Under the pieces are notes generated by a model. The model made no database searches, had not been told where the DNA came from, and saw nothing but the letters and a program-made list of their open reading frames with translations. The translations under genes were made by a program, and so were the position numbers. 64,000 bases of DNA from Gammaproteobacteria bacterium (GTDB taxonomy: Bacteria; Pseudomonadota; Gammaproteobacteria; UBA4575), in the NCBI GenBank assembly GCA_965203725.1, contig CBDBDH010000002.1, forward strand, positions 264,215 to 328,214, in the 5' to 3' direction. Every line of letters starts with the position of its first letter. Positions within the stretch are counted from its first letter, which is position 1. This document shows positions 7,665 through 27,217 of this stretch, in pieces.

Positions 7665-7666
7665 GA

Positions 7667-10775: not shown

Positions 10776-11471
10776 ATGCGAAAAGTATTATCGAGTGGAA
10801 AGGGTTTGTTTTGCCTGCTGCTGGTGTTGGCCGGTCCTGCGGTCCTGGCCAGTGGCGAGGTGCTGAAATCGCCCATTCTCGATCGTGTGAAAGTGCTGTA
10901 TTCGGCGCCCGCCAATCTGGAGGGCCTGACTCTGGAGCAGCTGCATGCGGAAAAGACCGTACTCGCTGATGAACTTGCAGCCATCCAGCAGGTCAGCGAT
11001 GCTCCTGAAGTTGCCAGACAAAAGTTTCTCGAGACGGTTTTTGAACATGATGACAAGCGCCTGAGGATTGTCGATGTCATACACAAACTGATTGACGAGT
11101 ATCAGATAGAAGGAAAATTCCGTGACGACCTGATCGGCTACAGCAATACATTCGACCAGGACATCAGGACCGCCCGCAAACATGTTCACACGCTGGAGGA
11201 CTATAAATCCTATGATTTCAGATTTTCCGCGGTCTACATGGCCATGATGCTGAAGTTCAATGAAAACCCCGAGTTCCGCAAACGCATGGAGGCGGACATG
11301 AAGGACCCGGATACGTCAATGGGCAGGTACCTGAAGGAAATGGATGAGTCCTATGCCGTGGTCCTTCACGAAAAATATCGCATTCAAAACATCTATTCCA
11401 TTCATGAGCTTGAAAATGCGATTACTCACATCAATGCAGAAATCTCCAGGCGGGATCACACGGAATTATAG
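10776..11471 (+). CDS. Hypothetical secreted protein
   Basis: ATG at 10776 with AAGGAA upstream; N-terminal signal peptide (LFCLLLVLAGPAVLASGEV). No recognisable domain. Confidence 0.5.
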   Translation: MRKVLSSGKGLFCLLLVLAGPAVLASGEVLKSPILDRVKVLYSAPANLEGLTLEQLHAEKTVLADELAAIQQVSDAPEVARQKFLETVFEHDDKRLRIVDVIHKLIDEYQIEGKFRDDLIGYSNTFDQDIRTARKHVHTLEDYKSYDFRFSAVYMAMMLKFNENPEFRKRMEADMKDPDTSMGRYLKEMDESYAVVLHEKYRIQNIYSIHELENAITHINAEISRRDHTEL

Positions 11472-11483
11472 GCAGGCTAGGTC

Positions 11484-11882
11484 ATGGTTGGGCGAATTTG
11501 TATATTGCTGGGAGTGATGTGTTGGGCAGCACCCCTGCTTGCAGAAACGGGTGCAGAAGTCAGCGAACCCCCGGAGATCGTCTTGGATGCACCGCCTGCT
11601 GCCAAGCCGGATTCTGAACCGCATATAAGCCAAACGGAAAAAGAAACCGTCTACGAATCGAGATTTTTTCCTGGCTTTCGCCCGTGCACGTCACAGGACT
11701 ACCATGACCATGATTTTGGCCCGGGTGCCTGTCAGGATACTGCGGCTGCACGCGCACTGTCTTCCCCCGATCAGGAGTACGGGTCAAATCGCAAATTGAT
11801 GGAAAAGGATACGATGCCCCAGGGAAATATCTTCAAGTTGCGTTTCGGGCGTATCCCCAAGGGCGCAGGCGCCAAACAGTAG
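11484..11882 (+). CDS. Hypothetical small secreted protein
   Basis: Signal-peptide-like N-terminus; otherwise low-complexity. Weak call. Confidence 0.3.
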   Translation: MVGRICILLGVMCWAAPLLAETGAEVSEPPEIVLDAPPAAKPDSEPHISQTEKETVYESRFFPGFRPCTSQDYHDHDFGPGACQDTAAARALSSPDQEYGSNRKLMEKDTMPQGNIFKLRFGRIPKGAGAKQ

Positions 11883-11993
11883 GTACGCAAGGGCAATCAG
11901 AAAACCGTACTGCCGTGGACTCCGGGTCAAGCCGGATCAGATCATCCATCATTAAATCCTGGGTTGCACAAACCAGCCTTCTCCAGAGGGCAG

Positions 11994-13142
11994 TTATTTC
12001 TGCATGCAGATCGAGCCTATGATTTTTTGCAGTAATTCAATGGTTGGCTCGAGGGATGAGAGCGCAATGAACTCATTGGGCTGGTGGGCCTGATCGATCG
12101 AACCAGGCCCGAGCACCACCGTTTCTATTCCCATGGAATTGAAAAAGGGGGCCTCCGTGGCAAAGGTCACGGATTTCGGCTTTTTACCGGTATACATGCT
12201 TGTCAATTCGACAATCCTTGAGTCACCTGCAGTTTCGAAGGCGGGAACCCCGTCAAACAATGGCTTGAACTTGCAGGCAAGGCCAAGCGGGTCTGTTTTT
12301 TTAGTAATCCTTTCGTGGAGTTCATCTCTGAGGGTATCGATCTGCATGCCGGGCAGCAGGCGCAGATCAACGTGCAGTTCGCACTCTGCACAGATCCGGT
12401 TGGGGTTGTCGCCACCATGAATATGGCCAAGATTCAGCGTTGGGACCGGCACGATGAAATCATGATTCGTATATTTTTCAGCCAGCTCTCGCTTGAATTT
12501 GTCCAGTTCGTTCAACACTACGCGCATTCCTTCCAGTGCGTTGTTCCCCAGTGCCGGGTTGCTTGAATGACCCGCTTTTCCATAGAGGGTAATTGACTCC
12601 ATGAACACCCCCTTGTGCTGGCGTACAGGGGTGAGGCTCGTCGGCTCGCCAATCACGCAAAAGCGCCCCGGTTTTCTGTTTTCTTCTGCAAGTGTGCGCA
12701 CACCCTGCATGGTGCTTTCCTCGTCGGCCGTTGCGACAATAGTAAGGCGCTGCTCGAGATTCTTGCCGACAAACTCTTTTGCCGCCTCAATGGCAATTGC
12801 CAGGAACGATTTCATGTCCGCTGTACCCAGACCGTAAAGGCGGTCCCCGACTTGCTGGGCTCGAAACGGATCAGTATTCCAGCCTGTTTGGTCAAAATTC
12901 ACGGTATCGGTGTGGCCTGACAGCACAAGGCCATCCTCCCCCTCTCCAATCCATGCCAACAGGTTATATTTTTCTTCCGAGGAAGGAACGATCTCCGTCT
13001 GGAAACCCAGGTCGTCCAGCCAGTTGGCCAGGCAGTCGATCATGGGTTTGTTGCTGGTATCAAATTGCGCCTGAGTGCTGCTGATGGAGGGGATTGCAAT
13101 CAGTTGTCCGATCATTTCAAGCAACGGAGGCGGTGACTTCAT
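11994..13142 (-). CDS. argE: Acetylornithine deacetylase (M20 peptidase family)
   Basis: ArgE-like N-terminus (IGQLIAIPSISS) and M20 metal-binding motifs; 382 aa. Confidence 0.85.
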   Translation of the reverse strand: MKSPPPLLEMIGQLIAIPSISSTQAQFDTSNKPMIDCLANWLDDLGFQTEIVPSSEEKYNLLAWIGEGEDGLVLSGHTDTVNFDQTGWNTDPFRAQQVGDRLYGLGTADMKSFLAIAIEAAKEFVGKNLEQRLTIVATADEESTMQGVRTLAEENRKPGRFCVIGEPTSLTPVRQHKGVFMESITLYGKAGHSSNPALGNNALEGMRVVLNELDKFKRELAEKYTNHDFIVPVPTLNLGHIHGGDNPNRICAECELHVDLRLLPGMQIDTLRDELHERITKKTDPLGLACKFKPLFDGVPAFETAGDSRIVELTSMYTGKKPKSVTFATEAPFFNSMGIETVVLGPGSIDQAHQPNEFIALSSLEPTIELLQKIIGSICMQK

Positions 13143-13143
13143 G

Positions 13144-14010
13144 CTACCGGGACCCTGTCATTTCCTGCGCAATTTCATAGATCGCGTTCGCATCCAGTAC
13201 CTGGTCGTTGGACGTAAACAGCCTGTCAATGCAAGCGCGATGCAGCTTCAGTTTCAGTGCCCCTATGCCCAGGCCGCCAAAAATTCTCTTGCCAAATCTT
13301 TCAGTATCCCTGTCATTCATGCTGATGCCCTCAAAGCCCAGGGGTTCCGCCGTACTGACGTCAGCCAGAATTTCAATGCTGTCATGCTGTTGCCACTGGC
13401 CTGCATCCAGTAAACGGACACCTGCCTTGCCTGCACCGAACACAAGCTGCGCCCCTTCCAGCGCAGCGTGGGTCGAGTCGGTGTCATTGGCCTCCACAGG
13501 CACAAGTCGGACTCCAAATTGTTTTCCCATGTCATCACATGCCTGCTGCGAACGACTCTTTTCCCGCGAGGTAAGGCGCACCTGGGCACCGCTTTGTGCA
13601 AGCATGACCGCGGCACGCTGTCCCACGGGCCCCGTACCTGCCAGGACGACGGCAATTTTGCCCGCCAAGGTTGTGGCCCGGTTCAACAGGGTGACACCGG
13701 CTGCAGCAGTGGTATTGCAGCCGTTGCTGTCCAGCATCACGGATACACGAAAATCCTGAAAAAAATGACTTTGTACGGCCTTGAATAAAGACTGGCCACT
13801 GACAAGGTTGCTGCCCCCAATAAAAATTGCAGTGTTCCTCTTGTGCTTGGGGGCTCGTGTATAGATCGCGCCCTCAACCAGGCTTGTGCAATTGCCTTCA
13901 TGGATGCCGCCAAGTTGGGTGACCTGGTCTGCTCCTCCATCGTAGGCAACTACAGAGTCAAATACACTGGGGATAGGATCAGTATCGAAATGGTACAAAA
14001 GCTTTTTCAT
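13144..14010 (-). CDS. mtdA: NAD(P)-dependent methylene-tetrahydromethanopterin/methylene-tetrahydrofolate dehydrogenase (MtdA/MtdB family)
   Basis: 288 aa. FDTDPIPSVFDSVVAYDGGAD..., SVMLDSNGCNTTAAAGV..., VVLAGTGPVG and GLGIGALKLKLHRACI closely match the methylotroph MtdA family. Confidence 0.8.
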   Translation of the reverse strand: MKKLLYHFDTDPIPSVFDSVVAYDGGADQVTQLGGIHEGNCTSLVEGAIYTRAPKHKRNTAIFIGGSNLVSGQSLFKAVQSHFFQDFRVSVMLDSNGCNTTAAAGVTLLNRATTLAGKIAVVLAGTGPVGQRAAVMLAQSGAQVRLTSREKSRSQQACDDMGKQFGVRLVPVEANDTDSTHAALEGAQLVFGAGKAGVRLLDAGQWQQHDSIEILADVSTAEPLGFEGISMNDRDTERFGKRIFGGLGIGALKLKLHRACIDRLFTSNDQVLDANAIYEIAQEMTGSR

Positions 14011-14044
14011 GGTATCGAGAGGTCAGCGTATCCCCACAGGGTCA

Positions 14045-16819
14045 CTAGCCGGTGCTGCCAATTCCCGCAGCAACACAGTTGATCGACAAAAGCAGGGGAA
14101 CCAGAATATTTTGCCTGTCTTCGGCCTGGTGTTGCTCATTGCGGAACTTTTTGACCAGTTCGGCTTGCTCAATACCGACCTGGTTCAGGGATTTCAGACG
14201 CCTGCTGAAGTGCCTTTTGAAATTCGGAAAGCGATCACACAGGTGATCCTCTCTGGTAACCTGCAAAACCATCCGGCTCGTACGCTCATACTCGGATTTG
14301 ATATCTGAGAAAATTGCTTCACTGTATTGGGTGTTAACCACCAGTTCGGAATATTTTTCCGCGACCTCAAAGTCGACCAGCAACAATGTTTTTTCAACGC
14401 TGTCCAGTATCAGACGAAACAATGAATGCGTATTATATAGTTCTTGCAGCAATTCTTTCCCCAGCTCCCCGCGGATGCTGATCAACTGTTCGAGGCTGCT
14501 CCCCACTCCATACCACCCCGGAACCAGAATGCGGTTTTGTGTCCAGGCAAAGACCCAGGGTATCGCACGCAGGTCTTCAAGGGTGGCTGCACCAAATCTG
14601 CGCGAGGGCCTTGATCCGATTTTCATCAGCGTCAGCTCCTCCACGGGGCTTGCCTGCTGGTAGAATTCCACCAGACCCGGGGCTTCGATGAACTTGCGGT
14701 ATGCGACGTACGCTGTACCTGAAAGTGCCTGCATGACTTCATCCAGTTCGGCGTTGGTTTGAAAAGCCGGGTCTTTGCCCGACATGAGCGTGTGTGCGAG
14801 TGCGCTGGAGGCAAGTATCTCCATTTGCTCTTCAGCAAACCCGTGGTTTGCGTACTTGTACGACACGACTTCACCCTGTTCCGTGACTCGCATGCGCCCG
14901 TCGATCGTGCCTACAGGCTGGGCTGCAATGGCGCGGCCACTGGGGGCGCCGCCTCGACTCACCGAACCCCCGCGCCCGTGAAAAAATGCAGCCTCTGTTT
15001 TGTGCTTGTCCCCGGCTTCCTTGATGAGGGTCTGTGCCTGGCTGATGATCCAGTTGGAAGTCAGGAATCCGCCGTCCTTGTTTGAATCCGAGTACCCCAC
15101 CATGACCTCTTGTGAGTCTCCGTTTCTGCGTATCGTGCGCCTGACAAATCCGTGTTCGAGCAATTCACTCAATATGGAGGGGCCCTGCTCCAGGGCTTCT
15201 ATAGTCTCCAGCAGGGGTACGACCAGGATGCGACAGGCTTCCAAACCGTCCACATCCGTGAACAGGCCGACATATTTCGCCAAAAGGTAGACTCCCAGCA
15301 CGTCGGTTGACGTTTGCGTCATGCTGAGGACGAAAACGCCAAATGCCTTGGAGTCCAGTCCGCGCTGGTAATGCTTGACCTGTTCCAGCATGGCCAGCGT
15401 GGCTTGGGCCTGGCTGGATAGAAAATCAATGCTCGGGATTACACGCAGGGGCTGCATGAGTTCGCTGACAACCCATTCTCTCCACTCATCTGATCCGAAA
15501 TCCGGAACATCAAAGTGGGTTTTCTGATGCAGGGCCTGCCAGATTTCTGCGAGAGTGCTATTCGTGATCGTCGTGTTCTCGCGAAGGTCCAGGCTGGCAG
15601 TTCGAAAGCCGAAGGTATCCACCATATGGCGTAAGGGAACGACATTTGACGTGCACAAGTGTTCGCATCGGGCATCATTGAGTCCACGCTCGAGCACCCG
15701 CAGATCGGACGCCAGGTCCGCTGCACTGTGGTATGCGACACTGGATTCTCCGGGCTCATCAATATGTTCCAGGGTCGCGTCAATGCTGCGCAGCATGCAG
15801 CTCAGATACTGCCGGAACACCTCGCCGGGGTTTCGCTTGGAAAAGGATTCCGTTTCTCCCAGCACTTCAAGTTTTTGTTGCAGGGCATCAAGGAAGTGTT
15901 CGGGGACTCTCAGGGAATGACTGGCAATGCTGAGCTTGGTACACAGCTCGCGAAGATCCTGGCGATATCGCTTCAGGCTGGCCTTGGCATTTTCACGAAG
16001 GGCGTAGGCAGTGACTTCAGTGTTCACATTCGGATTCCCATCCCGGTCACCGCCAATCCACGACCCGAAACGGAATATCGGCGGTACCTCGAATTCAACG
16101 TGCGGATACACTCTTCTCAGGGCACGCTCCAGTTCAGAATAGAATTTCATTGCGCCGTCAAACAGGGATTCCGTAAAGAAGTGCAGTCCCCATGTGATTT
16201 CCTGTTCGACGGTGGGTTTTTCCAGGCGAATCTCGCCCGTCAGCCAAAGCAGGTCGATCTCATTGCGTAGTTCATGGACCAGTTTGTCCCGTTCCCGGGG
16301 CGTCCAGCGTGTGAGTTCCAGTTGCTTGAGCAGCACATAGATGCGCCGGTGAATCTCCAGCACTGTGACGCGCTTGGCTTCCGTGGGATGTGCAGTGATT
16401 ACCGGACAGAAAAAACTCTTGTTCAGAATTTTCTGGACTTCTTCTGCCGGGATGCCATGCCGGGTTGCCGTGGAAAATGTATGTGCGAAAGTTCCGGGCA
16501 CGCGGCGGCGTCCGTACTCTTTTTCGATATGTCTACGCTGCTGTACGTTTGCATTTTGCTCGGCAATGCTGAGCAGCTGGAACCAGATGCCATGGGCTTC
16601 CAGTATGTACAGGATTTGTGTGTCCGTACTTTCGCGAATATCTTTGCGGCCCTCGATGAAGGCTTCTATGTCAGGTTGCCGAGCGCGCAGCACACTGAGC
16701 AACTGCTCGTACAACAGGTCTACAAGCTTGTTTTCATAACTTGCAGCCGGGTCAACAATGGCACGGCCACTGGCGACCCGGGTCAGTTGTGTCCAGGAAA
16801 GTGGAGAGGCGTCACTCAT
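14045..16819 (-). CDS. ppc: Phosphoenolpyruvate carboxylase
   Basis: 924 aa with a C-terminus ending ...AGIGSTG and a PEPC family sequence throughout. Confidence 0.95.
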   Translation of the reverse strand: MSDASPLSWTQLTRVASGRAIVDPAASYENKLVDLLYEQLLSVLRARQPDIEAFIEGRKDIRESTDTQILYILEAHGIWFQLLSIAEQNANVQQRRHIEKEYGRRRVPGTFAHTFSTATRHGIPAEEVQKILNKSFFCPVITAHPTEAKRVTVLEIHRRIYVLLKQLELTRWTPRERDKLVHELRNEIDLLWLTGEIRLEKPTVEQEITWGLHFFTESLFDGAMKFYSELERALRRVYPHVEFEVPPIFRFGSWIGGDRDGNPNVNTEVTAYALRENAKASLKRYRQDLRELCTKLSIASHSLRVPEHFLDALQQKLEVLGETESFSKRNPGEVFRQYLSCMLRSIDATLEHIDEPGESSVAYHSAADLASDLRVLERGLNDARCEHLCTSNVVPLRHMVDTFGFRTASLDLRENTTITNSTLAEIWQALHQKTHFDVPDFGSDEWREWVVSELMQPLRVIPSIDFLSSQAQATLAMLEQVKHYQRGLDSKAFGVFVLSMTQTSTDVLGVYLLAKYVGLFTDVDGLEACRILVVPLLETIEALEQGPSILSELLEHGFVRRTIRRNGDSQEVMVGYSDSNKDGGFLTSNWIISQAQTLIKEAGDKHKTEAAFFHGRGGSVSRGGAPSGRAIAAQPVGTIDGRMRVTEQGEVVSYKYANHGFAEEQMEILASSALAHTLMSGKDPAFQTNAELDEVMQALSGTAYVAYRKFIEAPGLVEFYQQASPVEELTLMKIGSRPSRRFGAATLEDLRAIPWVFAWTQNRILVPGWYGVGSSLEQLISIRGELGKELLQELYNTHSLFRLILDSVEKTLLLVDFEVAEKYSELVVNTQYSEAIFSDIKSEYERTSRMVLQVTREDHLCDRFPNFKRHFSRRLKSLNQVGIEQAELVKKFRNEQHQAEDRQNILVPLLLSINCVAAGIGSTG

Positions 16820-16931
16820 ACTGCATGTATAAAATCAGATTGATACATGCAATATACAGCAAGGCCACGAAATACTCCCTCCCGTTGCGGGAAGGCATAC
16901 ACCGGTGCACTGACCAGGGGCAAATAAAGAT

Positions 16932-17903
16932 TTAAACCAGCTTGTCTCTGGGGGTGTCGCCTGCTTCGAATGCAGCCAGATTTTCCAGTACACGGTTGCC
17001 CATCGCAATCCGTGTTTCAGTCGAAGCACTCCCCAGGTGGGGCAGCAGCACGGCATTTTCCAACTCAAGAAAACGCTTGTCGAGGTTGGGTTCGCCTTCG
17101 AACACGTCCAGGCCGGCTCCGGCAATCGTGCCATTTTTCAATGCCTCTATCAGCGCATCATTGTCCACCACATCACCACGCGCCGAATTGATCAGGAACG
17201 CGCCGGACTTCATCTTGGAAAGGTTTTCCCTGTTCAGCAGGTGGTAGGTTTCCTTGCCTCCGGGACAGTGGATGGATACAAAATCAGAGTTTGCAAGAAC
17301 CTCATCGATGGATTCGCACTGCGTGGCGTTAAACTTCTGTATCACCTCGTCGGGCGGGGGGTAGGGGTCCACAAAAATGATTTTCATCCCGAAGCCGTGG
17401 TGCGCGCGCCTTGCCATGGCCTGTGCAATTCGCCCCATGCCGATCATGCCGAGTGTCTTGCCGGTTACCTTGGTAGCCAGCAGGTGTGTGGGCCGCCAGC
17501 CCGTCCAGGCATTGGCACGCAGGTGACGCTCCCCTTCACTGGTGCGCCTTGCTGCGGTTAACAGCAATGTCATGGCAATGTCAGCCGTGCAGTCGGTGAG
17601 CACTTCAGGCGTATTGGTCACGGTCAGTCCACGTGCCTTGGCCGCATCCAGATCGATATGGTTGAATCCCACGCCAAAATTGCCGATAAACCGTGCACGC
17701 AACGGCTCGGCACTCAATACCTCCGCATCAACGGGGTCGGTAACGGTGGGCAGGAATGCATCGCAATTGCCCAGTGCCTGCTTCATTTCATCCTTGCTCA
17801 TGGCAACGTCGGTCTCATTCAGCTGCACGTCATATTTCTCTTTCAGCGTGGCTTCCACTTCTGCAGGCCACGCGCGCGAGACGATGACTTTCAATTTGCT
17901 CAT
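16932..17903 (-). CDS. hprA: D-isomer-specific 2-hydroxyacid dehydrogenase (hydroxypyruvate reductase / glycerate dehydrogenase)
   Basis: GMIGMGRIAQAMARRA Rossmann motif and a D-2-HADH catalytic region; lies inside the serine-cycle cluster. Confidence 0.75.
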   Translation of the reverse strand: MSKLKVIVSRAWPAEVEATLKEKYDVQLNETDVAMSKDEMKQALGNCDAFLPTVTDPVDAEVLSAEPLRARFIGNFGVGFNHIDLDAAKARGLTVTNTPEVLTDCTADIAMTLLLTAARRTSEGERHLRANAWTGWRPTHLLATKVTGKTLGMIGMGRIAQAMARRAHHGFGMKIIFVDPYPPPDEVIQKFNATQCESIDEVLANSDFVSIHCPGGKETYHLLNRENLSKMKSGAFLINSARGDVVDNDALIEALKNGTIAGAGLDVFEGEPNLDKRFLELENAVLLPHLGSASTETRIAMGNRVLENLAAFEAGDTPRDKLV

Positions 17904-17915
17904 TTTGTTCTTCTC

Positions 17916-18806
17916 CTAGGCAAGTTCTTTCAAGACGCGTTCCATGGTGGACCCGAGCTCGGACGGATCCGGTGCAACCGTGACACCCGCATCCCTCAAC
18001 AGCTCCACCTTCTCGGCAGCGCTTTCACCCTTGCCGGATACGATAGCACCTGCATGGCCCATGCGCCGTCCCTTTGGCGCCGTCAGTCCTGCAATGTAGG
18101 CAACCAGCGGCTTGGTCATGTGGTTTTTGAAGTACTCCGCCGCATCGGCTTCCTGGGGTCCTCCGATTTCACCGATCAGCATGACCGCCTCGGTTTCCGG
18201 GTCTGCCTCGAACAGCTCAAGAATGTCGCGATGAGAGCAGCCGTTGATGGGGTCACCACCAATTCCGACACTGGTGCTGATGCCGATTCCGCACGCCTTC
18301 ATCTGGGATGCGGCCTCGTAGCCAAGCGTGCCCGAGCGTGCGACGATGCCGACGTTGCCGGGGATATAGATATGTCCCGGCATGATGCCAAGCAGGCACC
18401 TGTCCGGACTGATCGTTCCGGCACAGTTGGGGCCGGTCAGGCGCATTCGCTCTTCTTTCTTGTAGCGGTACATGTAACGCTTTACAAGCATCATGTCCTG
18501 TGCGGGGATACCATCGGTGATTGCGACACAGGTCTTGATGCCCGCATCGGCCGCTTCCATGATCGAATCTGCGGCAAACGAGGCAGGTACAAACACGATA
18601 CTGGCATCGGCACCGGTCTCCTCAACCGCCTCCTTCATGGTGTTGAATACAGGCAGTTCGAGATGGGTTTGGCCGCCCTTGCCAGGCGTTACGCCGCCGA
18701 CCACCCGGGTGCCGTACTCAAGCATTTCCTTGGCATGAAACGTGCCTATTTTGCCTGTGAAGCCCTGAATCAGTACCTTGGTATTCTTGTCAATCATTAT
18801 GCTCAT
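17916..18806 (-). CDS. mtkB: Malate--CoA ligase (malate thiokinase) alpha subunit, succinyl-CoA-synthetase alpha-like
   Basis: SucD-like CoA-binding subunit ([18 protein letters not shown]..., [18 protein letters not shown]) next to an mtkA-like beta subunit and mcl. Confidence 0.8.
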
Positions 18807-18823
18807 GGGTATCTCCTAACGCT

Positions 18824-20008
18824 TTATGAGGCTTCAGCCGCGCGGTTGCGTTCCGCCACAACTTTTTCCGCCGCTTCAGACAGCGTATCCGCAGTGATCA
18901 CCGGATAGCCGCTGTCTTTGAGCATCTGCATGCCTTTTTCCACATTCGTTCCGGACAGACGGACAACGACCGGGGTGCGTACATCCAGCTTGCCAAATGC
19001 CTGTATCACGCCCTCGGCAATCCAGTCACAACGGTTGATGCCGGCAAAAATGTTGACCAGCATGGCCTTGACGTTTTCATCATCCAGCACCAGCCTGAAG
19101 GCCTTGGTGACCCGGTCCGGGGAAGCGCCGCCGCCGATGTCCAGGAAGTTGGCCGGCTCACCGCCCTTGTGCTTGATCATGTCCATGGTGGCCATCGCCA
19201 GTCCTGCACCGTTGATCATGCAGCCGATGTCACCGTCCAGGCCTACGTAGCTCAGGCCCCTGTCCGATGCCGCAGTTTCACGCGAGTCCTCCTGGGACTT
19301 GTCGCGCAACTCGGAGATCTTCGGTCTTCGAAACAGGGCGTTGTCATCAAAGCTCATCTTGGCGTCCAGGGCCAGGATGTGGTTGTCCTTGGTGACCACC
19401 AGAGGATTGATTTCCACCAGGGTGGCATCGAGTTCACGAAAGGCCTGATAAGCACCTTCGATGCAATGCACGGCCTGGCTGATCATCTCGGGATGGATAT
19501 TCAGGGCGAATGCCAGCTCGCGTGCCTGAAAATCCCGCAAACCCACGGCAGGCTCGACTTCCAGCCTGTGGATGCTCTCCGGCTTGGTCGCGGCCACTTC
19601 CTCGATATCCATGCCGCCTTCGGTTGAGGTGACGATCGTGACGCGCTGCTTGTTCCGGTCCAGCACCAGGGCGAGATAAATCTCGCGTTCTATGTCTGCA
19701 ACCTGCTCGATGTAGAGCCGGTACACGACCTTCCCGCCGGGGCCGGTCTGGTGGGTAACCAGGCGCTTGCCGAGCAATTCCTCGGCGGCATTCCAGATCT
19801 CCTCGTCACTGGAGCAGACCTTGATTCCACCGGCCTTGCCCCGGGCCCCGGAATGAATCTGTGCCTTGACGACCCACTGGTGTCCGCCGATCTCCTTGGC
19901 GCGGTACACGGCCTGTTCGGGACTGTATGCCAGGCCGCCGGGGGAGATCTCCACACCGAACTCCGATAGCAATTCTTTCGCTTGGTACTCATGAATATCC
20001 ACTTGCAT
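18824..20008 (-). CDS. mtkA: Malate--CoA ligase beta subunit (ATP-grasp, SucC-like)
   Basis: [19 protein letters not shown]... ATP-grasp N-terminus; 394 aa. Confidence 0.8.
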
Positions 20009-20141
20009 TCCCTCCCGAGAATTAATTCGTTTCTACCGCCTGTTCGTGGCGCTTCGACATCTCCTGCCGGATGGATGGATGCTCAAGATCCAAACACCTG
20101 CCGGGCGCTCGCAACAGACGAACGGAAAAACTGCTGAGATG

Positions 20142-21083
20142 TCAGGATCTGGCAGCTATGGCGTCAGCGGCGCGCACCACGTTTTCAGCCATGCGTGCAG
20201 AGGCCGCATCGATCATCTTACCATCGAGCGAGGCAGCGCCCTTGCCCTCTTTGGCAGCCTTCTCCAGCTCTTCCAGAATCCTTTTCGCCCGGTTGATCTC
20301 AGCTTCAGGCGGCGTAAAGACTTCATTGGCCAGTTCGATCTGCTTGGGATGAATCGCCCATTTTCCTTCACAGCCCAACGCGGCAGCACGGCGTGCAGCC
20401 AGCAGATACCCGTCCGGATCGTCGAAATCCCCGAAGGGGCCATCGATCGGGCGCAGTCCATACGCCCGGCAGGCGACCGTCATGCGCGAAATTGCCGCAT
20501 GCCACTGATCGCCCGGGTAATCCGGATTCAAGCCGCCGATGTTGACCGTGCGGGCACGATTACTTGCAGCATAATCCGCCACACCAAAGTGCATGGCTTC
20601 CATGCGCGTGCTGGAAGTTGCGATGGCTTCCACGTTGGCCATGCCCAAGGCGGTCTCGATCAGGGCTTCAAGCCCGATACGGTTTTCCAGTCCCTTGGCC
20701 TCTTCGATCTGGGTCACCATGGCGTCAACCATGTACACATCACCGGTGGTTCCCACCTTGGGAATGAGTATGGTGTCCAGCTTGCTGCCTGCCTGTTCCA
20801 CCACGTCCACGACATCGCGATACATGTAATGGGTGTCCAGTCCGTTGATGCGCACGGAAACCGTTTTCCCCTGACCTTTCCAGTCAAACTCGTTGAGCGC
20901 GGCAATGACGTTCTTTCGTGCCTGAACCTTGTCATCAGGTGCGACGGCATCTTCGAGGTCCAGAAACACGTAATCTGCAGCACAGGTCACTGCCTTCTCC
21001 AGCATCCTGGGGTTGGAACCAGGTACAGCGAGTTCGCAGCGTTGCAGTCGCTGTCTGGCCGGTTTGTATTGGGTAAAGCTCAT
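20142..21083 (-). CDS. mcl: Malyl-CoA lyase (HpcH/HpaI aldolase / citrate-lyase beta family)
   Basis: 313-aa CitE/HpcH-fold protein in serine-cycle context. Confidence 0.8.
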   Translation of the reverse strand: MSFTQYKPARQRLQRCELAVPGSNPRMLEKAVTCAADYVFLDLEDAVAPDDKVQARKNVIAALNEFDWKGQGKTVSVRINGLDTHYMYRDVVDVVEQAGSKLDTILIPKVGTTGDVYMVDAMVTQIEEAKGLENRIGLEALIETALGMANVEAIATSSTRMEAMHFGVADYAASNRARTVNIGGLNPDYPGDQWHAAISRMTVACRAYGLRPIDGPFGDFDDPDGYLLAARRAAALGCEGKWAIHPKQIELANEVFTPPEAEINRAKRILEELEKAAKEGKGAASLDGKMIDAASARMAENVVRAADAIAARS

Positions 21084-22348
21084 CTTGATTTCCTTGTTGG
21101 TTTTTTCTTTGCGGCTCTTGCCTCGCGGGGCGCTGTGACTGAACCGAACTTCTTGATCTTCTTGGCGGTTTTGCGGTAGTACTCTCCGGCTGCGGCAACT
21201 CCGCTGCCGGGTTTCACTTTCATTCCCGCATCTCGCATCGCCATTTCCACAGTACCCAGCACGGCCATCATTCGTGCCTCGTTGTTATCCCCGAGGTGTC
21301 CGATCCGGAATACCTTGCCGGCCACTTTGGACAACCCGGCACCCAGGGAGATGTTGTAGCGGTGATAGGCGATGTGGATCACTTCGGCCGCATTGACACT
21401 GGGAGGCACTTCGATCGCCGTCACCGTGTCGGAGTACCACTTGGGCGCCCTGGCACAGGGCTTGAGTCCCCAGGCCTTGATGGCTTTTCGCACCCCTTCG
21501 GCCAGTCGGTGGTGGCGCTGGAATACGTTTTCCAGGCCTTCATCCATTAGCAGGTCGATGGCGGCCCGCAGTCCGCGCAGCATGGGTACCGAGGGGGTGT
21601 AGGGGAAATATCCGTCTTTGTTGGTGTTGATGTGATCCTGGATGTCCAGGAAGCAGCGTGCACAGCGGGCCTGTTTGCGTGCCCTCAGTGCCTTCGGGCT
21701 GAACGCCACGATGGCCATTCCCGCCGGCAGCATGAATCCCTTTTGTGATCCGCTGACGGCGACGTCCACGCCCCACTGGTCCATGCGAAAATCGATGCTC
21801 GCGATCGAGCTGACCCCGTCAACCATGAGCATGGCCGGATGCTTGACGGCATCCATCGCCTTGCGCAAGCCGGCGATGTCACTGGTGACCCCGGTGGCGG
21901 TCTCGTTATGACAAACCACCACGGCGCGAATCCGGTGTTCCTTGTCCGCGGCGAGGATGCGCTTGAACTTGCCAATCGGAACGCCTTCTCCCCAGGGGGT
22001 TTCGACCAGGTCGACCTCCAGGCCGATGCGGCATGCAAGGTCATACCACAAGTGACTGAACTGACCGAAGCGCGTGGTGAGAATCTTGTCCCCGGGAGAC
22101 ATGGTGTTGGCGAGAGCCACCTCCCAGCCTGCGGTGCCTGTGGCGGGAAACAGAAAGCAGGTTCCCTTGGTCGTTTTGAATATTTTTTTGCAGTCGCGAA
22201 GCAGGGGTTTGACGAGTTCTGGAAAATCTGGAGCCCGATGGTCCTCTTGCGGGACGATCATGGCGTTTTGCACGGCCTGCGGGATGTGGGTCGGGCCCGG
22301 GGCAAACAGGTAATTTCGTCCAGGAAATGATAATTTTTCGCTAGGCAT
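21080..22348 (-). CDS. sga: Serine--glyoxylate aminotransferase (class V aminotransferase) with a Lys-rich C-terminal tail
   Basis: The preferred start is the internal ATG at 22348 (MPSEKLSFPGRNYLFAPGPTHIPQAV...), giving a class-V aminotransferase. The C-terminus carries ...KKIKKFGSVTAPREARAAKKKPTRKSR. Confidence 0.8.
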   Translation of the reverse strand: MPSEKLSFPGRNYLFAPGPTHIPQAVQNAMIVPQEDHRAPDFPELVKPLLRDCKKIFKTTKGTCFLFPATGTAGWEVALANTMSPGDKILTTRFGQFSHLWYDLACRIGLEVDLVETPWGEGVPIGKFKRILAADKEHRIRAVVVCHNETATGVTSDIAGLRKAMDAVKHPAMLMVDGVSSIASIDFRMDQWGVDVAVSGSQKGFMLPAGMAIVAFSPKALRARKQARCARCFLDIQDHINTNKDGYFPYTPSVPMLRGLRAAIDLLMDEGLENVFQRHHRLAEGVRKAIKAWGLKPCARAPKWYSDTVTAIEVPPSVNAAEVIHIAYHRYNISLGAGLSKVAGKVFRIGHLGDNNEARMMAVLGTVEMAMRDAGMKVKPGSGVAAAGEYYRKTAKKIKKFGSVTAPREARAAKKKPTRKSR

Positions 22349-22436
22349 AATCAGGAATCCTTGAATTGTAAAATTTGGTAAAAAATGCAAACGCCTAGAT
22401 GGTTGTTTCTGCAGTCCGGGCGGTCATTTCTGCATA

Positions 22437-22470
22437 CAGGATGCTTTTGTCCGAAAAACTAAGCATCCTG
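22437..22470. promoter_or_regulatory. Perfect 10-bp inverted repeat (CAGGATGCTT, 14-nt loop, AAGCATCCTG) in the ftr-sga intergenic region
   Basis: Read directly in the sequence. There is no U-tract, so it is more likely a regulatory stem-loop or operator than an intrinsic terminator. Confidence 0.3.
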
Positions 22471-22602
22471 CCACAAGCACAGCACCAGACTCAAGCAGTT
22501 TGGCCATCGAAAGGGGCGATTCCCGGATGGTCTCAAGCCTGCAGAGACCTTCGGGGATGACATTCGGGACCTACGGGCGTGCCGGGAGCCAGCGCCCCCG
22601 CA

Positions 22603-23520
22603 TTACGGCTGTTTTTCAGGGTGCAGGAAAATAAAGCTTTTGCCCAGGCGCCCGCCATAGTTGCCGGCAGAAATCATCTTCAGGCCCGGGGTGTCCACCG
22701 AAGCCCGGATCGCAGCCTGAGTGGCATCGATAATGGGCTGCATGCCCTGACCGTTCATGATGATCTCCATGACCGAGTGCACACCCTCCGGGAGCCCAGC
22801 CTCGACCTCCGGATTCTCCTGCAACAGCGGGCAGAACTTCTCATAGGTGCTGGCAATGGTGAAGTCATAATTGCTGCCGGCCTTGGAGCCGCTGCCGGCA
22901 ATGCCGCCGGGAAAAGTCGTGATGACGCCGGGCATGGGCAGGATCGCTTCCACCCCTTTCTCTGCCGCTTGCAGCGCGGAATCCACGCTGTCGCCGAAAA
23001 ACCACAGGTTGCCGCCCATCAGGCCATCGGCATAGCCCAGCCTGCGGTCCAGGATGAACTCGCCTCCCAGGATCGGAATCCACCACATTTTGCGCCCGAA
23101 CCGTTCGATGCGCCGCTGATGCCCGTTGCCAAAGTAGGCCACCTTGCGGCCCATGTGATAGTACTCTTCGGAGTCAATCAGGTTGAAGCACGAAGCGGTC
23201 GGGCAGGTGAGGACGTTCTGGCTGATTCGAACCAGGGCCGAACGCTCCAGGGCCTCGACCCGGTCCTTTCTGAAACGCGGGAGGTGCAACTGTACGATCG
23301 CACCCGGGCGGCCATCCGGTGTCTTGAAATTCTCGTCTCCGCCGGGGCCTACGTAGCGGTCCATGCCGGCCTCGCAGTCACATAGAATTGAGCTTGAGGC
23401 GTTGCCGGTCGCCGCATGCACGGCATGGTCCAGCCATTTTCGATCACGTGCGGTGATCAGGAATTCGGTGTACAGGCTCCGGAACGCTTCCGCATAGGTG
23501 TCATCGATAATTGCTGCCAC
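22603..23520 (-). CDS. Formylmethanofuran:tetrahydromethanopterin formyltransferase homologue (Ftr/FhcD-like)
   Basis: TYAEAFRS..., CDCEAGMDRYV, TPDGRPG, ILGGEF, GGNLWFFGDS, PGVITTFPGGIAGSGSK and AGNYGGRLGK match the Ftr family along the whole length. Confidence 0.75.
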   Translation of the reverse strand: MAAIIDDTYAEAFRSLYTEFLITARDRKWLDHAVHAATGNASSSILCDCEAGMDRYVGPGGDENFKTPDGRPGAIVQLHLPRFRKDRVEALERSALVRISQNVLTCPTASCFNLIDSEEYYHMGRKVAYFGNGHQRRIERFGRKMWWIPILGGEFILDRRLGYADGLMGGNLWFFGDSVDSALQAAEKGVEAILPMPGVITTFPGGIAGSGSKAGSNYDFTIASTYEKFCPLLQENPEVEAGLPEGVHSVMEIIMNGQGMQPIIDATQAAIRASVDTPGLKMISAGNYGGRLGKSFIFLHPEKQP

Positions 23521-23522
23521 GA

Positions 23523-24161
23523 CTACCCCCGTCCAATCCCTTCGTAGACCGCATCCTCGGTGATCACCTTGTCCATGTAGACGTCATGCGGGGCCACCAG
23601 GACTTCATCAAACAGTTGCGACTCGTAACACAGTGCGACCAGCGGACAGTCCGGCCGGGCTTTCTCCAGCAGGCGGTCGTAGTATCCCTGCCCGTTTCCC
23701 ATGCGCCCGCCTTTCTGATCGAAACCCACACCGGGCACCATGATGATATCGAGGTCTTCGGGCTCCACCTCTTTTTCCGGATTTCCCCACAGCTCCCTCG
23801 GGGGCTCCAGGATATTCCACTTGCCGACGACCATCTCTTCCAGGCTTTCCATCCACCACAGGCCCAGCTTGTTTTCGCCGTTTTCATCTTCGGTGCAATA
23901 GGGCACGATGATCTTTTTCTTGCCCCTGGCCACTTCTTCGAGCAACTGCGGCTTGGTCCGGGTCTCGGAGCGGCAGTCGATATACCACATCGCGGTCTTG
24001 GCGCGCTGGTATTCGGGCAGGGCCATGAATTTCTGGCAGGCCCGGGCGCTGATCTCGTCCTTGTCTTCCTGCGCATTGCGCCGGTCATAGGCTTCACGGC
24101 GCATCTTGTTCTTGCGTTCCATTACGGCCTCTAGCTCTTCGGGGGATAGTAATGTAGCCAT
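23523..24161 (-). CDS. 5-formyltetrahydrofolate cyclo-ligase family protein
   Basis: MVPGVGFDQKGGRMGNGQGYYDRLL is the 5-FCL/MTHFS signature; 212 aa. Confidence 0.75.
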   Translation of the reverse strand: MATLLSPEELEAVMERKNKMRREAYDRRNAQEDKDEISARACQKFMALPEYQRAKTAMWYIDCRSETRTKPQLLEEVARGKKKIIVPYCTEDENGENKLGLWWMESLEEMVVGKWNILEPPRELWGNPEKEVEPEDLDIIMVPGVGFDQKGGRMGNGQGYYDRLLEKARPDCPLVALCYESQLFDEVLVAPHDVYMDKVITEDAVYEGIGRG

Positions 24162-24262
24162 CGCAGCTCCTGGGTTATCGTTCTGGTTATTCCGGGCAGG
24201 TCATGGGCAACCGGCAGGGACAATCCTAAAGGATTTGCACGCTGCCTGACAATTTTGAATTT

Positions 24263-25945
24263 TCAGTCCGTAGTGGCCCCGTTGGAAGCCGAGCGCACCT
24301 GCCGGGCGTATTTGGCCAGAACTCCTTTGGAGTAACGGGGCCTGGGGGCGCGCCATCGCCGTTTTCTTTGTCCCAGCTCTTTCCTGGAAAGCCTGACGTT
24401 GATCTCGCGCTTTTCGGCATCGATGGTGATCACATCACCATTTTTCAGAAGTGCCAAGGGGCCACCGACCGCAGCTTCCGGGGTGATGTGACCGACCACA
24501 AAGCCGTGACTGCCTCCCGAGAAGCGCCCGTCCGTGATCAGGGCCACGTCCTTGCCCAGCCCCTTGCCCATGATGGCCGAGGTCGGAGACAGCATCTCGC
24601 GCATGCCCGGACCGCCTTTTGGCCCCTCGTAACGGATCACCACCACATCCCCTTTTTTGACACCGCCATCCAGGATCCTGGCCAGCGCCTTCTCCTCGGA
24701 GGGGAAAATGCGCGCCTTTCCGGTAAAGTGCAGCCCCTCTTTTCCGGAAATCTTGGCCACGGCACCTTCGGGTGCGAGATTTCCATACAGGATCACGAGG
24801 TGGCTGTCTTTTTTGATCGGGTCCGCGAAGCTGCGCACGATGTCCTGGGATTTCGGGTATCGCCGGATGCCGCGCAGGTTCTGTTTCAGGGTCTTGCCGG
24901 TTACGGTCAGGCAGTCCCCGTGCAGCAGGCCCTTGTCGAGCAACATGCGCATCAGGGGCCGGATGCCGCCGATTTCGATCAGTTCGGACATCATGTACCG
25001 CCCGCTCGGTCGCAGATCGGCCAGCACCGGCACTTTCTTGCCCACCCGCGTGAAGTCGTCGAGGCTCAGCCTTACCCCGATGGCATGCGCCATCGCCAGC
25101 AGGTGCAGCACCGCATTGGTGGACCCTCCCAGTGCGGTCACCACGGTGATCGCATTCAGGAAGGCCTTGCGGGTCATGATGTCCCGGGGGCGGATATTTT
25201 TCCGCACCAGGTGCATGACGGCTTTGCCGGCAGCAATACAGTCGAGCCGCTTGTCTTCCGAGATTGCGTTTTGCGCCGAGCTGTTCGGCAGGCTCATGCC
25301 GAGCGCCTCGATGGCACTGGCCATGGTGTTGGCGGTGTACATCCCGCCGCAGGACCCCGCGCCCGGGATCGCCGCGCATTCAACCTGCTTGAGCTCACGG
25401 TCCGACAACTGGTTTTTGGCGTGCTGTCCCACGGCCTCGAATACCGAGACCACGTCCACCTTCGTGTTCTTGTAGTGCCCCGGCTGGATCGTGCCCCCGT
25501 AGACGAAGATCGAGGGGCGGTTGAGTCGCGCCATGGCGATCAGGCAGCCGGGCATGTTCTTGTCGCACCCGCCAATGGCAACCACGCCGTCAAATCCCTC
25601 GCAGCCCACCACCGTCTCGATGGAGTCCGCGATGACTTCCCTGGACACCAGGGAATACTTCATGCCTTCCGTGCCCATGGAAATCCCGTCAGAGACGGTG
25701 ATGGTGTTGAAGATCACGGCCTTGCCGCCGGCCTGGTCGGCACCTTGGGCCGCTTCATCGGCCAGGGTGTTGATGTGCATGTTGCAGGGCGTCACCATGC
25801 TCCAGGTGGATGCGATGCCGATCTGCTCTTTCGAGAAATCGTCATCCTCAAAGCCCACGGCCCGCAGCATGGCGCGGCTCGGTGCGCGCTCCACCCCGTC
25901 CACGATGATGGAAGAATGGTTTCGTGACTGTTTGTATCTACCCAA
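24263..25945 (-). CDS. ilvD: Dihydroxy-acid dehydratase
   Basis: 560-aa IlvD/EDD family protein (CDKNMPG, GGTIQPGH motifs). Confidence 0.9.
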   Translation of the reverse strand: MGRYKQSRNHSSIIVDGVERAPSRAMLRAVGFEDDDFSKEQIGIASTWSMVTPCNMHINTLADEAAQGADQAGGKAVIFNTITVSDGISMGTEGMKYSLVSREVIADSIETVVGCEGFDGVVAIGGCDKNMPGCLIAMARLNRPSIFVYGGTIQPGHYKNTKVDVVSVFEAVGQHAKNQLSDRELKQVECAAIPGAGSCGGMYTANTMASAIEALGMSLPNSSAQNAISEDKRLDCIAAGKAVMHLVRKNIRPRDIMTRKAFLNAITVVTALGGSTNAVLHLLAMAHAIGVRLSLDDFTRVGKKVPVLADLRPSGRYMMSELIEIGGIRPLMRMLLDKGLLHGDCLTVTGKTLKQNLRGIRRYPKSQDIVRSFADPIKKDSHLVILYGNLAPEGAVAKISGKEGLHFTGKARIFPSEEKALARILDGGVKKGDVVVIRYEGPKGGPGMREMLSPTSAIMGKGLGKDVALITDGRFSGGSHGFVVGHITPEAAVGGPLALLKNGDVITIDAEKREINVRLSRKELGQRKRRWRAPRPRYSKGVLAKYARQVRSASNGATTD

Positions 25946-26131
25946 GCCGGTTACCTGCTATTTGCCGCCACCTGGGGAGGATGGCATCAAAAGAAGTCCT
26001 GCCACGCTGGTGCGATCCGTGTGGCATTTTCGGCTTTTTATAGCGGTTACGCGTGCGGAATGCAAAGTTTTGCGCACGCATCCGGGCGCCAGTCGACCCA
26101 TCCCGGGAGGTATCGGTGACCGGGGCTGGCC

Positions 26132-27217
26132 CTAGGGCGAGGTGCCTGACGGCAGGGGAGACTGGCGGGCGAAGACGACCAGATGTTCGATGTCCAGATT
26201 GATCCCGATCGGCTCTCCGATCTGGTGGTCGTGGTGGCTGGAGGCATAGCACAGCACGGAATTTCCACTTTGCAGGCGAAGCTTGTACAGGAATTCGGCG
26301 CCGCGGAAACGCTTTTCCTCAACCAGTGCAGTAATGGAGCTGCTGTCATCATGGGGAATATCATCCGGTCGCACCAGCAAGTCCACTTCCTCACCGCAGG
26401 CAAAAGACGGATCCAGGCTCCCTCGCAGCCGGCCAAACTCGGTATCCAGCGTATGCGCGTCAAGCACCCTGGCCGGAAGCATGCTGCCGAGGCCGATAAA
26501 ATCGGCCACGAAACGGGTTCGGGGCCTGTGATAGATGTTGTAGGCGCTGTCCCACTGCACGATGCGGCCCCCTACCATGACACCGATCTCATCGGCCATG
26601 GCGAAGGCCTCGTTCTGGTCATGCGTCACCAGTATTGCAGTGGCGTTCTCATGCTTGAGGATCTCGCGCACCCCGGTTGCGACCTGTTCACGCAGGTCAG
26701 GATCGAGGTTCGAGAAGGGTTCATCCAGCAACAGGATCTCCGGCTTGGGTGCCAGCGCTCGTGCCAGCGCGACTCTCTGCTGCTGTCCGGTGGACAGCTG
26801 GTGCGGGTACTTTTCTCCCTTGTGCTCCAGCTCGATCAGTTCGAGCACCTCGCGCGTGCGCGCCACCTGGTCACTTTCAGTCAGTGACTTGAGACCAAAG
26901 CATATGTTCTGCCGAACCGTCAGATGCGGGAACAATGCAAGATCCTGGAACATCATGCTGATGTGCCTCTTCTCCGGGGCAAGGGTGAACTGTGCCTTGC
27001 TGAAAAGCCTTTCATGTACGTAGATCTCGCCACTGGCGACCGGCTGGAATCCTGCAAGGGCACGCAACAGCGTGGTTTTGCCGCAGCCACTTGGTCCCAG
27101 TATGGAAGCAATGCATCCCGGCTCAAGCTGCAGGGAAACATCTTGCAGGGTGTTTTTGTTGTGCAGCTTCAGGCTGACGTTGCGTACTTCAAGTCTGGGC
27201 GCCATGGATGACTCCAC
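26132..27217 (-). CDS. ABC transporter ATP-binding protein (Fe3+/polyamine type with C-terminal TOBE domain)
   Basis: Walker A GPSGCGKTT, LSGGQQQRVALARAL signature and Walker B LLLDEPFSNLD. Confidence 0.85.
   Translation of the reverse strand: MESSMAPRLEVRNVSLKLHNKNTLQDVSLQLEPGCIASILGPSGCGKTTLLRALAGFQPVASGEIYVHERLFSKAQFTLAPEKRHISMMFQDLALFPHLTVRQNICFGLKSLTESDQVARTREVLELIELEHKGEKYPHQLSTGQQQRVALARALAPKPEILLLDEPFSNLDPDLREQVATGVREILKHENATAILVTHDQNEAFAMADEIGVMVGGRIVQWDSAYNIYHRPRTRFVADFIGLGSMLPARVLDAHTLDTEFGRLRGSLDPSFACGEEVDLLVRPDDIPHDDSSSITALVEEKRFRGAEFLYKLRLQSGNSVLCYASSHHDHQIGEPIGINLDIEHLVVFARQSPLPSGTSP

Follow-up and report, generated by a model that had tools for sequence, protein, structure and literature searches.

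We describe here a two-gene module found in a 64-kb stretch of gammaproteobacterial DNA (contig CBDBDH010000002.1, positions 264,215 to 328,214; the window, which we analysed over its whole length). The module joins a gene for a homologue of formylmethanofuran:tetrahydromethanopterin formyltransferase (Ftr) to a gene for 5-formyltetrahydrofolate cyclo-ligase (5-FCL, gene fcl), and it adjoins a cluster of serine-cycle genes. Our comparisons with related genomes and metagenomes establish that fcl and ftr are a fixed, translationally coupled unit. What is new is a conserved and widespread Ftr-5-FCL partnership of known folds and chemistry, whose physiological role is likely also new. The account of that role that we favour, while giving it somewhat less than an even chance, is that the pair would act as a one-way formyl bridge into the tetrahydrofolate (H4F) pool, in this organism feeding the serine cycle. 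The original prediction, made from the letters of the window, had singled out the Ftr gene as lying outside an fhcCDAB operon and next to a 5-FCL gene. This holds, as the neighbours of the Ftr gene are the 5-FCL gene and sga. Neither fhcA, fhcB nor fhcC adjoins it or occurs anywhere in the 64 kb, and the flanks are ilvD and sga, which rules out a standard FhcD with nearby fhc genes.

The Ftr homologue has the two-lobe PF01913/PF02741 architecture over residues 4 to 300 (E-values of 2.1e-40 and 1.3e-45). It passes the Ftr subfamily model NF002554 (306.6 against a cut-off of 297) and falls narrowly below the cut-off of TIGR03119, the one_C_fhcD equivalog (289.8 against 292.6). Among solved structures, archaeal Ftr proteins are matched at 219 to 231 bits (231 for 1m5s of A. 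fulgidus; also 1m5h and 1ftr) and FhcD of M. extorquens (6s6y_D) at 158 bits. Judged by sequence comparison, the protein is thus nearer to archaeal Ftr than to FhcD, hence "Ftr-like" is a better label than the "FhcD-like" first given to it; source databases name it formylmethanofuran--tetrahydromethanopterin N-formyltransferase. In a neighbour-joining tree of 69 sequences the clade that holds it was monophyletic in 100 of 100 bootstraps, and the phylogeny against FhcD and archaeal Ftr that had been suggested as a check therefore places it in a separate subfamily. Identities are 55 to 92% inside the clade, 41 to 47% to the archaeal structures and 33 to 47% to FhcD. A search of a library clustered at 50% identity gave a 67%-identical relative as its top match, the other full-length family members being at most 48% identical. 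Relatives were confirmed by tblastn in GTDB species genomes (395), and another 130 matches were confirmed in metagenome contigs.

The strictly conserved catalytic glutamate of the family (Glu245 in M. kandleri, Glu252 in FhcD), whose role is described in PMC6926001, is kept as E252 in the window protein, where VYEIVING aligns to VMEIIMNG. Canonical Ftr and FhcD share 44 positions with a conservation of 80% or more, and 42 of these are also retained; the two that changed are Arg22, now Glu (R22E), and Met148, now Leu (M148L). Three insertions, GPGGDENF, PRFRKDRV and ENPEVEAG, are specific to the clade.

We counted the pairing in those genome and metagenome loci where a clade Ftr has at least 650 bp of sequence ahead of it (n = 143). 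In 138 of the 143, the gene immediately upstream on the same strand encodes a 5-FCL, at a median gap of 4 nt; in the window, the TAG stop codon of fcl stands 2 nt ahead of the GTG start codon of the Ftr gene. The paired loci span several bacterial lineages, including soil-type bacteria with Acidobacteriota/Gemmatimonadota-like MfnB, and the earlier suggestion that the pairing is meaningful thus extends far beyond the Gammaproteobacteria. The five unpaired loci (L081, L082, L121, L158 and L167) have uninformative neighbours. No 5-FCL gene is adjacent in the canonical relatives (L088, L091, L092, L093 and L174). Pairing of this strictness is unusual for a generic salvage enzyme. Two candidates for true 5-FCL-Ftr fusion proteins (P0131 and P0223) were rejected as frameshifted calls from error-prone assemblies.

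The partner 5-FCL keeps the MTHFS motifs K17, R21, E66, GxGxGYYD (G155 to D162) and TE (T201-E202), which it shares with 1ydm and 1sou, and has a 16-residue N-terminal extension relative to known 5-FCLs. It had been called a paralogue, yet it is not a divergent one, having these motifs and a score above the MTHFS equivalog cut-off. The partner in L090, which comes from a distant soil-type bacterium, is 62% identical to that of the window (Ftr 73%), whereas solved 5-FCLs are matched at only 39 to 77 bits. Because identity is this high across such distant lineages, we regard 5-FCL and Ftr as co-inherited; on these comparisons, the partner is an orthologous group of its own that travels with the Ftr subfamily.

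In the gammaproteobacterial branch, the pair is followed by folD (52 of 80 genome loci and 21 of 80 metagenome loci). The order there is fcl-ftr-folD and then sga-mcl-mtkAB-hprA-ppc, with mtdA last where the flank reaches that far. folD sits in the gap between ftr and sga, for example at 11033-11911 in L010, 10949-11836 in L053, 10920-11783 in L064 and 10946-11911 in L049. The sub-lineage of the window, to which L001 to L007, L014, L023, L024, L027 and L031 also belong, has lost folD from this site and retains mtdA. No FolD remnant was found by tblastn in the ftr-sga gap or anywhere in the 64-kb window, which rules out a folD pseudogene in that gap of 254 bp. Some genomes, including those of Oxydemutatoraceae, carry fcl-ftr-folD without serine-cycle genes. 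As a separate observation, the Porisulfidus-type locus L064 has further genes between folD and sga (13289-15733), among them one for an 814-aa subtilase and open reading frames (ORFs) of no family. Similar folD-sga insertions of 4 to 8 kb in L032, L062, L067, L072 and L075 split the one-carbon (C1) module from the serine-cycle genes.

The gene identities, catalytic residues, subfamily, pairing, spacing and contexts are shown by the sequences; the donor, the acceptor and the direction of flux given next are inferred. Ftr would draw its formyl group from a carrier of the methanofuran type or from N5-formyl-tetrahydromethanopterin (N5-formyl-H4MPT), and N5 of a tetrahydropterin would receive it; this acceptor is most likely H4F and the product then 5-formyl-H4F. 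The co-translated 5-FCL, going by its family membership, would use ATP to convert 5-formyl-H4F to 5,10-methenyl-H4F, which FolD in most relatives, or MtdA in the window, would turn into methylene-H4F. Serine hydroxymethyltransferase (SHMT) would then pass the C1 unit into the serine cycle (Sga, HprA, Ppc, MtkAB and Mcl). The net reaction would equal that of the Fhc hydrolase, formate-H4F ligase and cyclohydrolase together, at the same cost of one ATP and with no free formate. Ftr-type enzymes formylate N5 of a tetrahydropterin, and N5-formyl-H4MPT is cyclised reversibly by Mch without ATP. For the conversion of 5-formyl-H4F to methenyl-H4F, the ATP-dependent 5-FCL is, to our knowledge, the sole route, and we know of no ATP-independent folate enzyme. 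If H4F is the acceptor, one would expect just such a tie of an N5-formyltransferase to 5-FCL and, across one large branch, to FolD as well. We rejected the direct condensation of formate with H4F by Ftr on energetic grounds: relative to formate, the formyl amide is higher by about 23 kJ/mol (PMC6926001), and the resulting steady state of 5-formyl-H4F would, by our own estimate, fall far below what 5-FCL needs. For formyl-methylofuran the same paper puts the difference from formate at 22.9 kJ/mol, and it has the Ftr step near equilibrium (4.4 kJ/mol); an ATP-driven exit step would therefore give the bridge its direction.

The clade enzyme itself would, in this scheme, be an H4F N5-formyltransferase that makes 5-formyl-H4F purposely, whether the donor is formyl-methanofuran, N5-formyl-H4MPT or, where a genome has neither cofactor, a new N-formyl compound. 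We think that this assignment may well be wrong and advance it as a possibility in roughly one case of three. Several points weigh against the bridge. Characterised Ftr and FhcD enzymes are reportedly H4MPT-specific, and the 42 retained positions would fit an unchanged formyl-methanofuran:H4MPT specificity equally well. The linkage to folD is confined to the gammaproteobacterial branch. The formyl donor may be absent from the host, and in some soil-type loci the clade enzyme may be an ordinary formyltransferase; both of these are taken up below.

The pair could also be imagined to work wholly on the methanopterin side, with 5-FCL acting on N5-formyl-H4MPT so that formyl-methanofuran is converted irreversibly, at the expense of ATP, to methenyl-H4MPT, which MtdA would reduce. 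The chemistry of 5-FCL requires, from what is known of the family, just an N5-formyl-tetrahydropterin with a free N10, the MtdA of M. extorquens is annotated in PDB molecule names as bifunctional for H4MPT and H4F, and the pair does occur in H4MPT clusters. The same clusters, however, encode the ATP-free Mch (L049, L090 and L099), the conserved third gene of the gammaproteobacterial branch is the folate-specific folD, and the serine cycle does not use methylene-H4MPT. Together with a 5-FCL that scores above the MTHFS equivalog cut-off, these points make an ATP-driven methanopterin route decidedly improbable in our judgement.

The H4MPT/methanofuran clusters that hold the pair lie in other loci. 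In L090, the genes mptG, DUF447, pabAB, a pterin-binding protein gene and mfnB precede 5-FCL and Ftr, and genes for amino-acid-kinase-like, hydantoinase-like, ATP-grasp, PTPS, CitG and Mch proteins stand beside them. L101 has the order fae-fcl-ftr-mfnB in a housekeeping neighbourhood. In the soil-type loci L096 (3-1464) and L099 (3-2653) the order is fhcA-fhcC-mch-...-fcl-ftr; no canonical fhcD follows fhcC, and these clusters encode a single formyltransferase, the clade Ftr, which lies together with its 5-FCL about 5 kb further downstream. In L091, a related contig, the order is fhcA-fhcC-fhcD, and a candidate fragment of fhcB lies beyond. In L102, 6 kb separate the fcl-ftr pair from canonical fhcD-fhcA-fhcB genes. 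In L049, a gammaproteobacterial chromosome of 2.6 Mb whose Ftr is 82% identical to that of the window, a citG-mptN-mch-ATP-grasp-mtdB-mptG block lies next to genes for a class-V aminotransferase and HprA and to fcl-ftr-folD (85-11911). The same mptG-mtdB-mch block is flanked by fhcBADC in the gammaproteobacterial loci L092, L093 and L174, of which the first two, but not L174, also carry fae further out; fcl-ftr-folD in L049 thus looks like a syntenic replacement of the genes of the Fhc complex. The canonical archaeal-type ftr of L088 stands in the order mtd-ftr-fwdDBAC.

These loci also bear on a more conservative explanation: an H4MPT-dependent pathway of formaldehyde oxidation is encoded elsewhere in the genome, the clade enzyme serves it as an ordinary stand-alone formyl-methanofuran:H4MPT formyltransferase, and the linked 5-FCL is there for repair only. 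The 5-FCL would clear 5-formyl-H4F, a dead-end inhibitor of SHMT, arising from a side reaction of Ftr with H4F or from the heavy flux through SHMT in the serine cycle. We hold this to be unlikely, yet it is a serious contender. The catalytic glutamate and 42 of 44 family positions are retained, Ftr is above the NCBIfam subfamily cut-off, the 5-FCL is fully canonical in appearance, and the pair lies within H4MPT/methanofuran clusters in L090, L096, L099 and L101. The lack of fhcD after fhcC in L096 and L099 suggests that the clade enzyme is probably the formyltransferase of the pathway in those two. What counts against a repair role is, first, the pairing itself: a co-evolving partner at a 4-nt gap in 138 of 143 loci is unusual for a salvage enzyme, and the FhcD-type genes of L091, L092, L093 and L174 do without an adjacent 5-FCL. 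Where a canonical fhcD stands alongside the pair, as in L102, two formyltransferases can be argued to differ in role. Finally, the Gammaproteobacteria join the pair to folD instead of H4MPT genes, and genes for H4MPT or methanofuran were seen neither in the window nor in 79 of the first 80 genome loci. A distinct role for the clade Ftr, as the formyl bridge supposes, fits both the coexistence with fhcD in L102 and the apparent substitution for fhcBADC in L049.

Across the two kinds of neighbourhood the enzyme hardly changes. We compared 101 clade Ftr proteins from folD or serine-cycle contexts with 57 from other contexts and took the columns that reach 90% conservation in each group; 151 of them were identical and one differed (Asn132/Asp). 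The partner 5-FCL gave 56 identical columns and 3 conservative differences. Because the strongly conserved Ftr columns are near-identical between the context groups, the fcl-ftr pair most likely does the same job here as it does beside mfnB, fae and mch, so far as sequence can tell. A prediction of substrate change from specificity-determining positions was abandoned, as R22E and M148L (against canonical enzymes) and N132/D (between contexts) are too few.

Pfam scans of the window gave no fae, mch, fhcABC, fwd, mfn, mpt or other methanofuran or methanopterin gene. About 1.4 Mb of flanking sequence around the first 80 genome loci held no H4MPT or methanofuran gene except in L049. None of the approximately 27 complete chromosomes of the relatives (1.6 to 2.9 Mb) is among the best 120 homologues of the L049 Mch or the L085 MfnB, a weak negative in that the chromosome of L049 is itself absent as a source contig for its own Mch cluster. 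The proposed donor may thus be missing from the host. If the small sponge and marine genomes have neither methanofuran nor H4MPT, Ftr might instead move a formyl group from another N-formyl amine, such as N-formylglutamate or some other metabolite of the formamide type, to H4F. The empty flanks of 79 of the 80 loci and the chromosome search agree with such a donor, as does the strong constraint on the Ftr gene in these genomes (77 to 98% identity). Against it, the 151 shared columns and single difference with respect to members beside mfnB, fae and mch argue for the same substrates, and the genome negative is weak, being limited to the best 120 matches and missing L049's own chromosome among its Mch sources. 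We regard this alternative as improbable.

The nine-gene cluster headed by the module is bordered by ilvD (24263-25945) on one side and argE (11994-13142) on the other, and its features are collected in Table 1. All nine genes of the original prediction were recovered in the order, on the strand and within the bounds it gave, as judged by Pfam, NCBIfam and solved-structure matches.

Table 1. Coordinates and supporting matches of features in the 64-kb window.
Feature	Position	Strand	Evidence or remarks
5-FCL (fcl)	23523-24161	minus	212 aa; PF01812 full length, 133.6 bits; TIGR02727 131.7 against cut-off 84.9
Ftr homologue	22603-23520	minus	305 aa, GTG start; PF01913 and PF02741
Sga, serine-glyoxylate aminotransferase	21080-22348	minus	422 aa; 467 bits to SGAT structure 6pk1 (best solved match)
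Mcl, malyl-CoA lyase	20142-21083	minus	313 aa; PF03328 HpcH/HpaI and C-C_Bond_Lyase
MtkA, malate-CoA ligase beta	18824-20008	minus	NF010647 690.4 against cut-off 604
MtkB, malate-CoA ligase alpha	17916-18806	minus	CoA_binding and Ligase_CoA; 441.7 as succinate-CoA ligase alpha-type; adjoins mtkA
HprA, hydroxypyruvate/glyoxylate reductase	16932-17903	minus	2-Hacid_dh and 2-Hacid_dh_C; glyoxylate reductase-like 303.7 bits, below cut-off
Ppc, phosphoenolpyruvate carboxylase	14045-16819	minus	924 aa; PF00311, 773 bits
MtdA, NADP-dependent methylene-H4F/H4MPT dehydrogenase	13144-14010	minus	PF09176; 297 bits to M. extorquens MtdA (1lu9, 6tge)
Candidate sigma-70-like promoter of fcl and the Ftr gene	24223-24252	minus	ilvD-fcl spacer; TTGTCA, 18 nt, TAGGAT; 9/12 matches
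Intergenic region, Ftr gene to sga	22349-22602	minus	site of folD in most relatives
Lys/Arg-rich Sga tail	21083-21172	minus	residues 393-422, past the end of the 6pk1 alignment
Low-GC island, ParA-like ATPase	36482-37498
Low-GC island, RelA/SpoT-domain protein	37505-38215
Low-GC island, macro-domain protein	38600-39058
Low-GC island, AbiEi/AbiEii toxin-antitoxin pair	39381-41350
Low-GC island, helix-turn-helix protein	42145-42534
Low-GC island, several ORFs of no family

The serine-cycle enzymes Sga, HprA, MtkA/B, Mcl and Ppc are all encoded, clustered on one strand. The gene order is kept in up to 58 related loci, with mcl after sga in 52 of 80 genome loci, and a serine-cycle cluster of this kind is ordinary for the host group. 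These are core serine-cycle enzymes, for which the earlier label of a "glyoxylate-regeneration half" is not apt. Within the 64 kb we found neither glyA nor genes for glycerate kinase, enolase, malate dehydrogenase or a route that regenerates glyoxylate. The family scan applied Pfam to ORFs of at least 150 aa across the 64 kb and to several shorter ones; its other hits were to cell-wall, lipoate, lipopolysaccharide (LPS)-core, transporter, glnE and toxin-antitoxin genes. The Sga match to the BhcA-like model (599.7 bits) is below the cut-off of 650. The true start of sga is the ATG at 22348, the longest ORF opening with a TTG at 22390, and its TGA stop codon overlaps the ATG of mcl (ATGA). Sigma-70-like matches in the ilvD-fcl intergenic region did not exceed the expectation from shuffled sequence, which makes the promoter candidate of Table 1 weak evidence. 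No credible Rfam match to a known RNA family or riboswitch was obtained at 12000-26500.

Sga ends in a basic tail (residues 393 to 422, KTAKKIKKFGSVTAPREARAAKKKPTRKSR) that extends past the end of the 6pk1 alignment. The original prediction had noted a Lys-rich tail there and allowed for a sequencing frameshift. The tail is a genuine lineage feature: all 58 related loci that carry sga encode a basic Lys/Arg-rich tail, of about 10 to 35 residues, which together with the overlap of the stop codon with the mcl start rules out a frameshift or mis-called end. Across relatives its composition is conserved and its sequence is not. That the tail binds a polyanion or assembles an enzyme complex is speculation. 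Upstream of sga, a block of about 60 nt is conserved in seven close relatives (alignment A1), the rest of the spacer being variable; it reads CCAAAYTGCTTGAGTC ... CTTRTGGCA.GATGC ... TTTT and matches no Rfam family. From its conservation and position, the block is probably a promoter or operator of the sga/serine-cycle operon.

The best 80 Ftr relatives, 77 to 98% identical, come from metagenome-assembled genomes and complete chromosomes of 1.6 to 2.9 Mb, many from sponges and others from sea water. They are labelled Gammaproteobacteria, "Thiotrichales", Candidatus Porisulfidus and Candidatus Oxydemutatoraceae (relative: Ca. Oxydemutator). Among the complete chromosomes nearest to the window are OZ244850.1 and OZ242174.1, with an Ftr 97 to 98% identical, and OZ243969.1, OZ242168.1 and CP070821.1. 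By their GTDB placement the named relatives are probably the UBA10353 marine group, or Arenicellales. A bioRxiv preprint on the first cultured UBA868 strain (10.64898/2026.04.01.715867) equates UBA10353 with the order Arenicellales and describes a serine cycle fed by the oxidation of methylated amines; it does not mention Ftr. The earlier view of the organism as a C1-utilising gammaproteobacterium stands in part: it is kin to sponge and marine gammaproteobacterial genomes whose C1 use is a genomic prediction, and it is not a classical methylotroph. Two of the loci with a typical gammaproteobacterial fcl-ftr are filed under "uncultured Mycobacterium sp." (L021) and "uncultured Planctomycetaceae bacterium" (L077). 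L021 also has ilvD upstream and serine-cycle genes downstream, and both labels are probably binning or labelling errors in public records.

Other parts of the window lie apart from the C1 genes. A low-GC stretch at 35900-44400 (GC 0.376 at 36-38 kb against about 0.55 elsewhere), with the genes given in Table 1, is probably a mobile or defence island. It is followed at 44775-48047 by a gene for a protein of 1,090 aa that ends in an autotransporter beta-domain and whose N-terminal passenger region has no Pfam match, a surface protein that might be relevant to host association. An LPS-core/outer-membrane region (48272-61501) encodes Kdo/WaaP-type kinases, two FkbM methyltransferases, two heptosyltransferases and a Kdo transferase, as well as a TolC-like protein of the outer membrane and a radical-SAM protein of 504 aa. 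An MqsA-type antitoxin homologue is encoded at 63244-63834, close to the window end.

The accepted view of serine-cycle methylotrophs is that C1 units leave methanopterin and methanofuran as free formate and reach folate by way of formate-H4F ligase, and 5-formyl-H4F is usually regarded as a by-product that 5-FCL merely recycles. The module, which couples an N5-formylating enzyme to the one enzyme known to consume 5-formyl-H4F and is under tight constraint, points to a second, unrecognised link that joins the two carrier systems or, failing that, to a functional class of Ftr that is new. Were the clade Ftr to prove an H4F N5-formyltransferase, 5-FCL would become an assimilatory enzyme instead of a salvage enzyme. 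A formate-free, one-ATP connection from methanopterin and methanofuran to folate would then take the place of formate-H4F ligase, both in soil bacteria and in the abundant Gammaproteobacteria of sponges and the sea. The hosts of the module include abundant sponge symbionts and marine plankton, whose metabolism of C1 compounds and methylated amines is only recently being described. There is also a practical consequence, as automatic annotation of these proteins as Ftr may make metabolic models infer an H4MPT pathway where none exists. Full-text literature searches returned no paper describing the Ftr-5-FCL pair or this Ftr subfamily, and targeted reading of the paper on the Fhc structure (PMC6926001) and of a review on how H4MPT genes are distributed (PMC5020050) gave none either.

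Among the closest known systems is archaeal Ftr (1ftr, 2fhj, 1m5s and 1m5h). Like the window protein, it consists of the two lobes FTR and FTR_C in about 300 aa, is encoded by a stand-alone gene, and has the equivalent of the catalytic Glu245 and most of the family-conserved residues. Unlike archaeal Ftr, the window protein is bacterial and falls in a separate clade with three insertions and the change of Arg22 to Glu. The clade gene has 5-FCL upstream (138 of 143 loci), whereas the archaeal gene lies near fwd/fmd, mtd or mch, as in L088. FhcD of the FhcABCD complex (M. extorquens, 6s6y) is a homologous bacterial C1 formyltransferase, and clade genes do occur near fhcA, fhcB or fhcC in L096, L099 and L102. 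The window gene, in contrast, is not flanked by fhcC and fhcA, and its product lies outside FhcD in the tree. The window 5-FCL shares the full-length domain, the motifs and an equivalog score with known 5-FCL/MTHFS enzymes (EC 6.3.3.2; 1ydm, 1sou and 3hxt) but differs from them in its translational coupling to an Ftr gene, its membership of a separate orthologous group and its N-terminal extension. The sga-hprA-mtdA-fch and mtkAB-ppc-mcl clusters of M. extorquens encode the same enzyme set as the window (Sga, HprA, MtkAB, Mcl, Ppc and MtdA). The window cluster differs from them in having neither fch nor a gene for formate-H4F ligase; Ftr and 5-FCL, with folD in relatives, stand in that position. 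It also differs from the serine-cycle clusters of methylotrophs in the basic tail of its Sga and in its host group, which is sponge-associated or marine and has small genomes.

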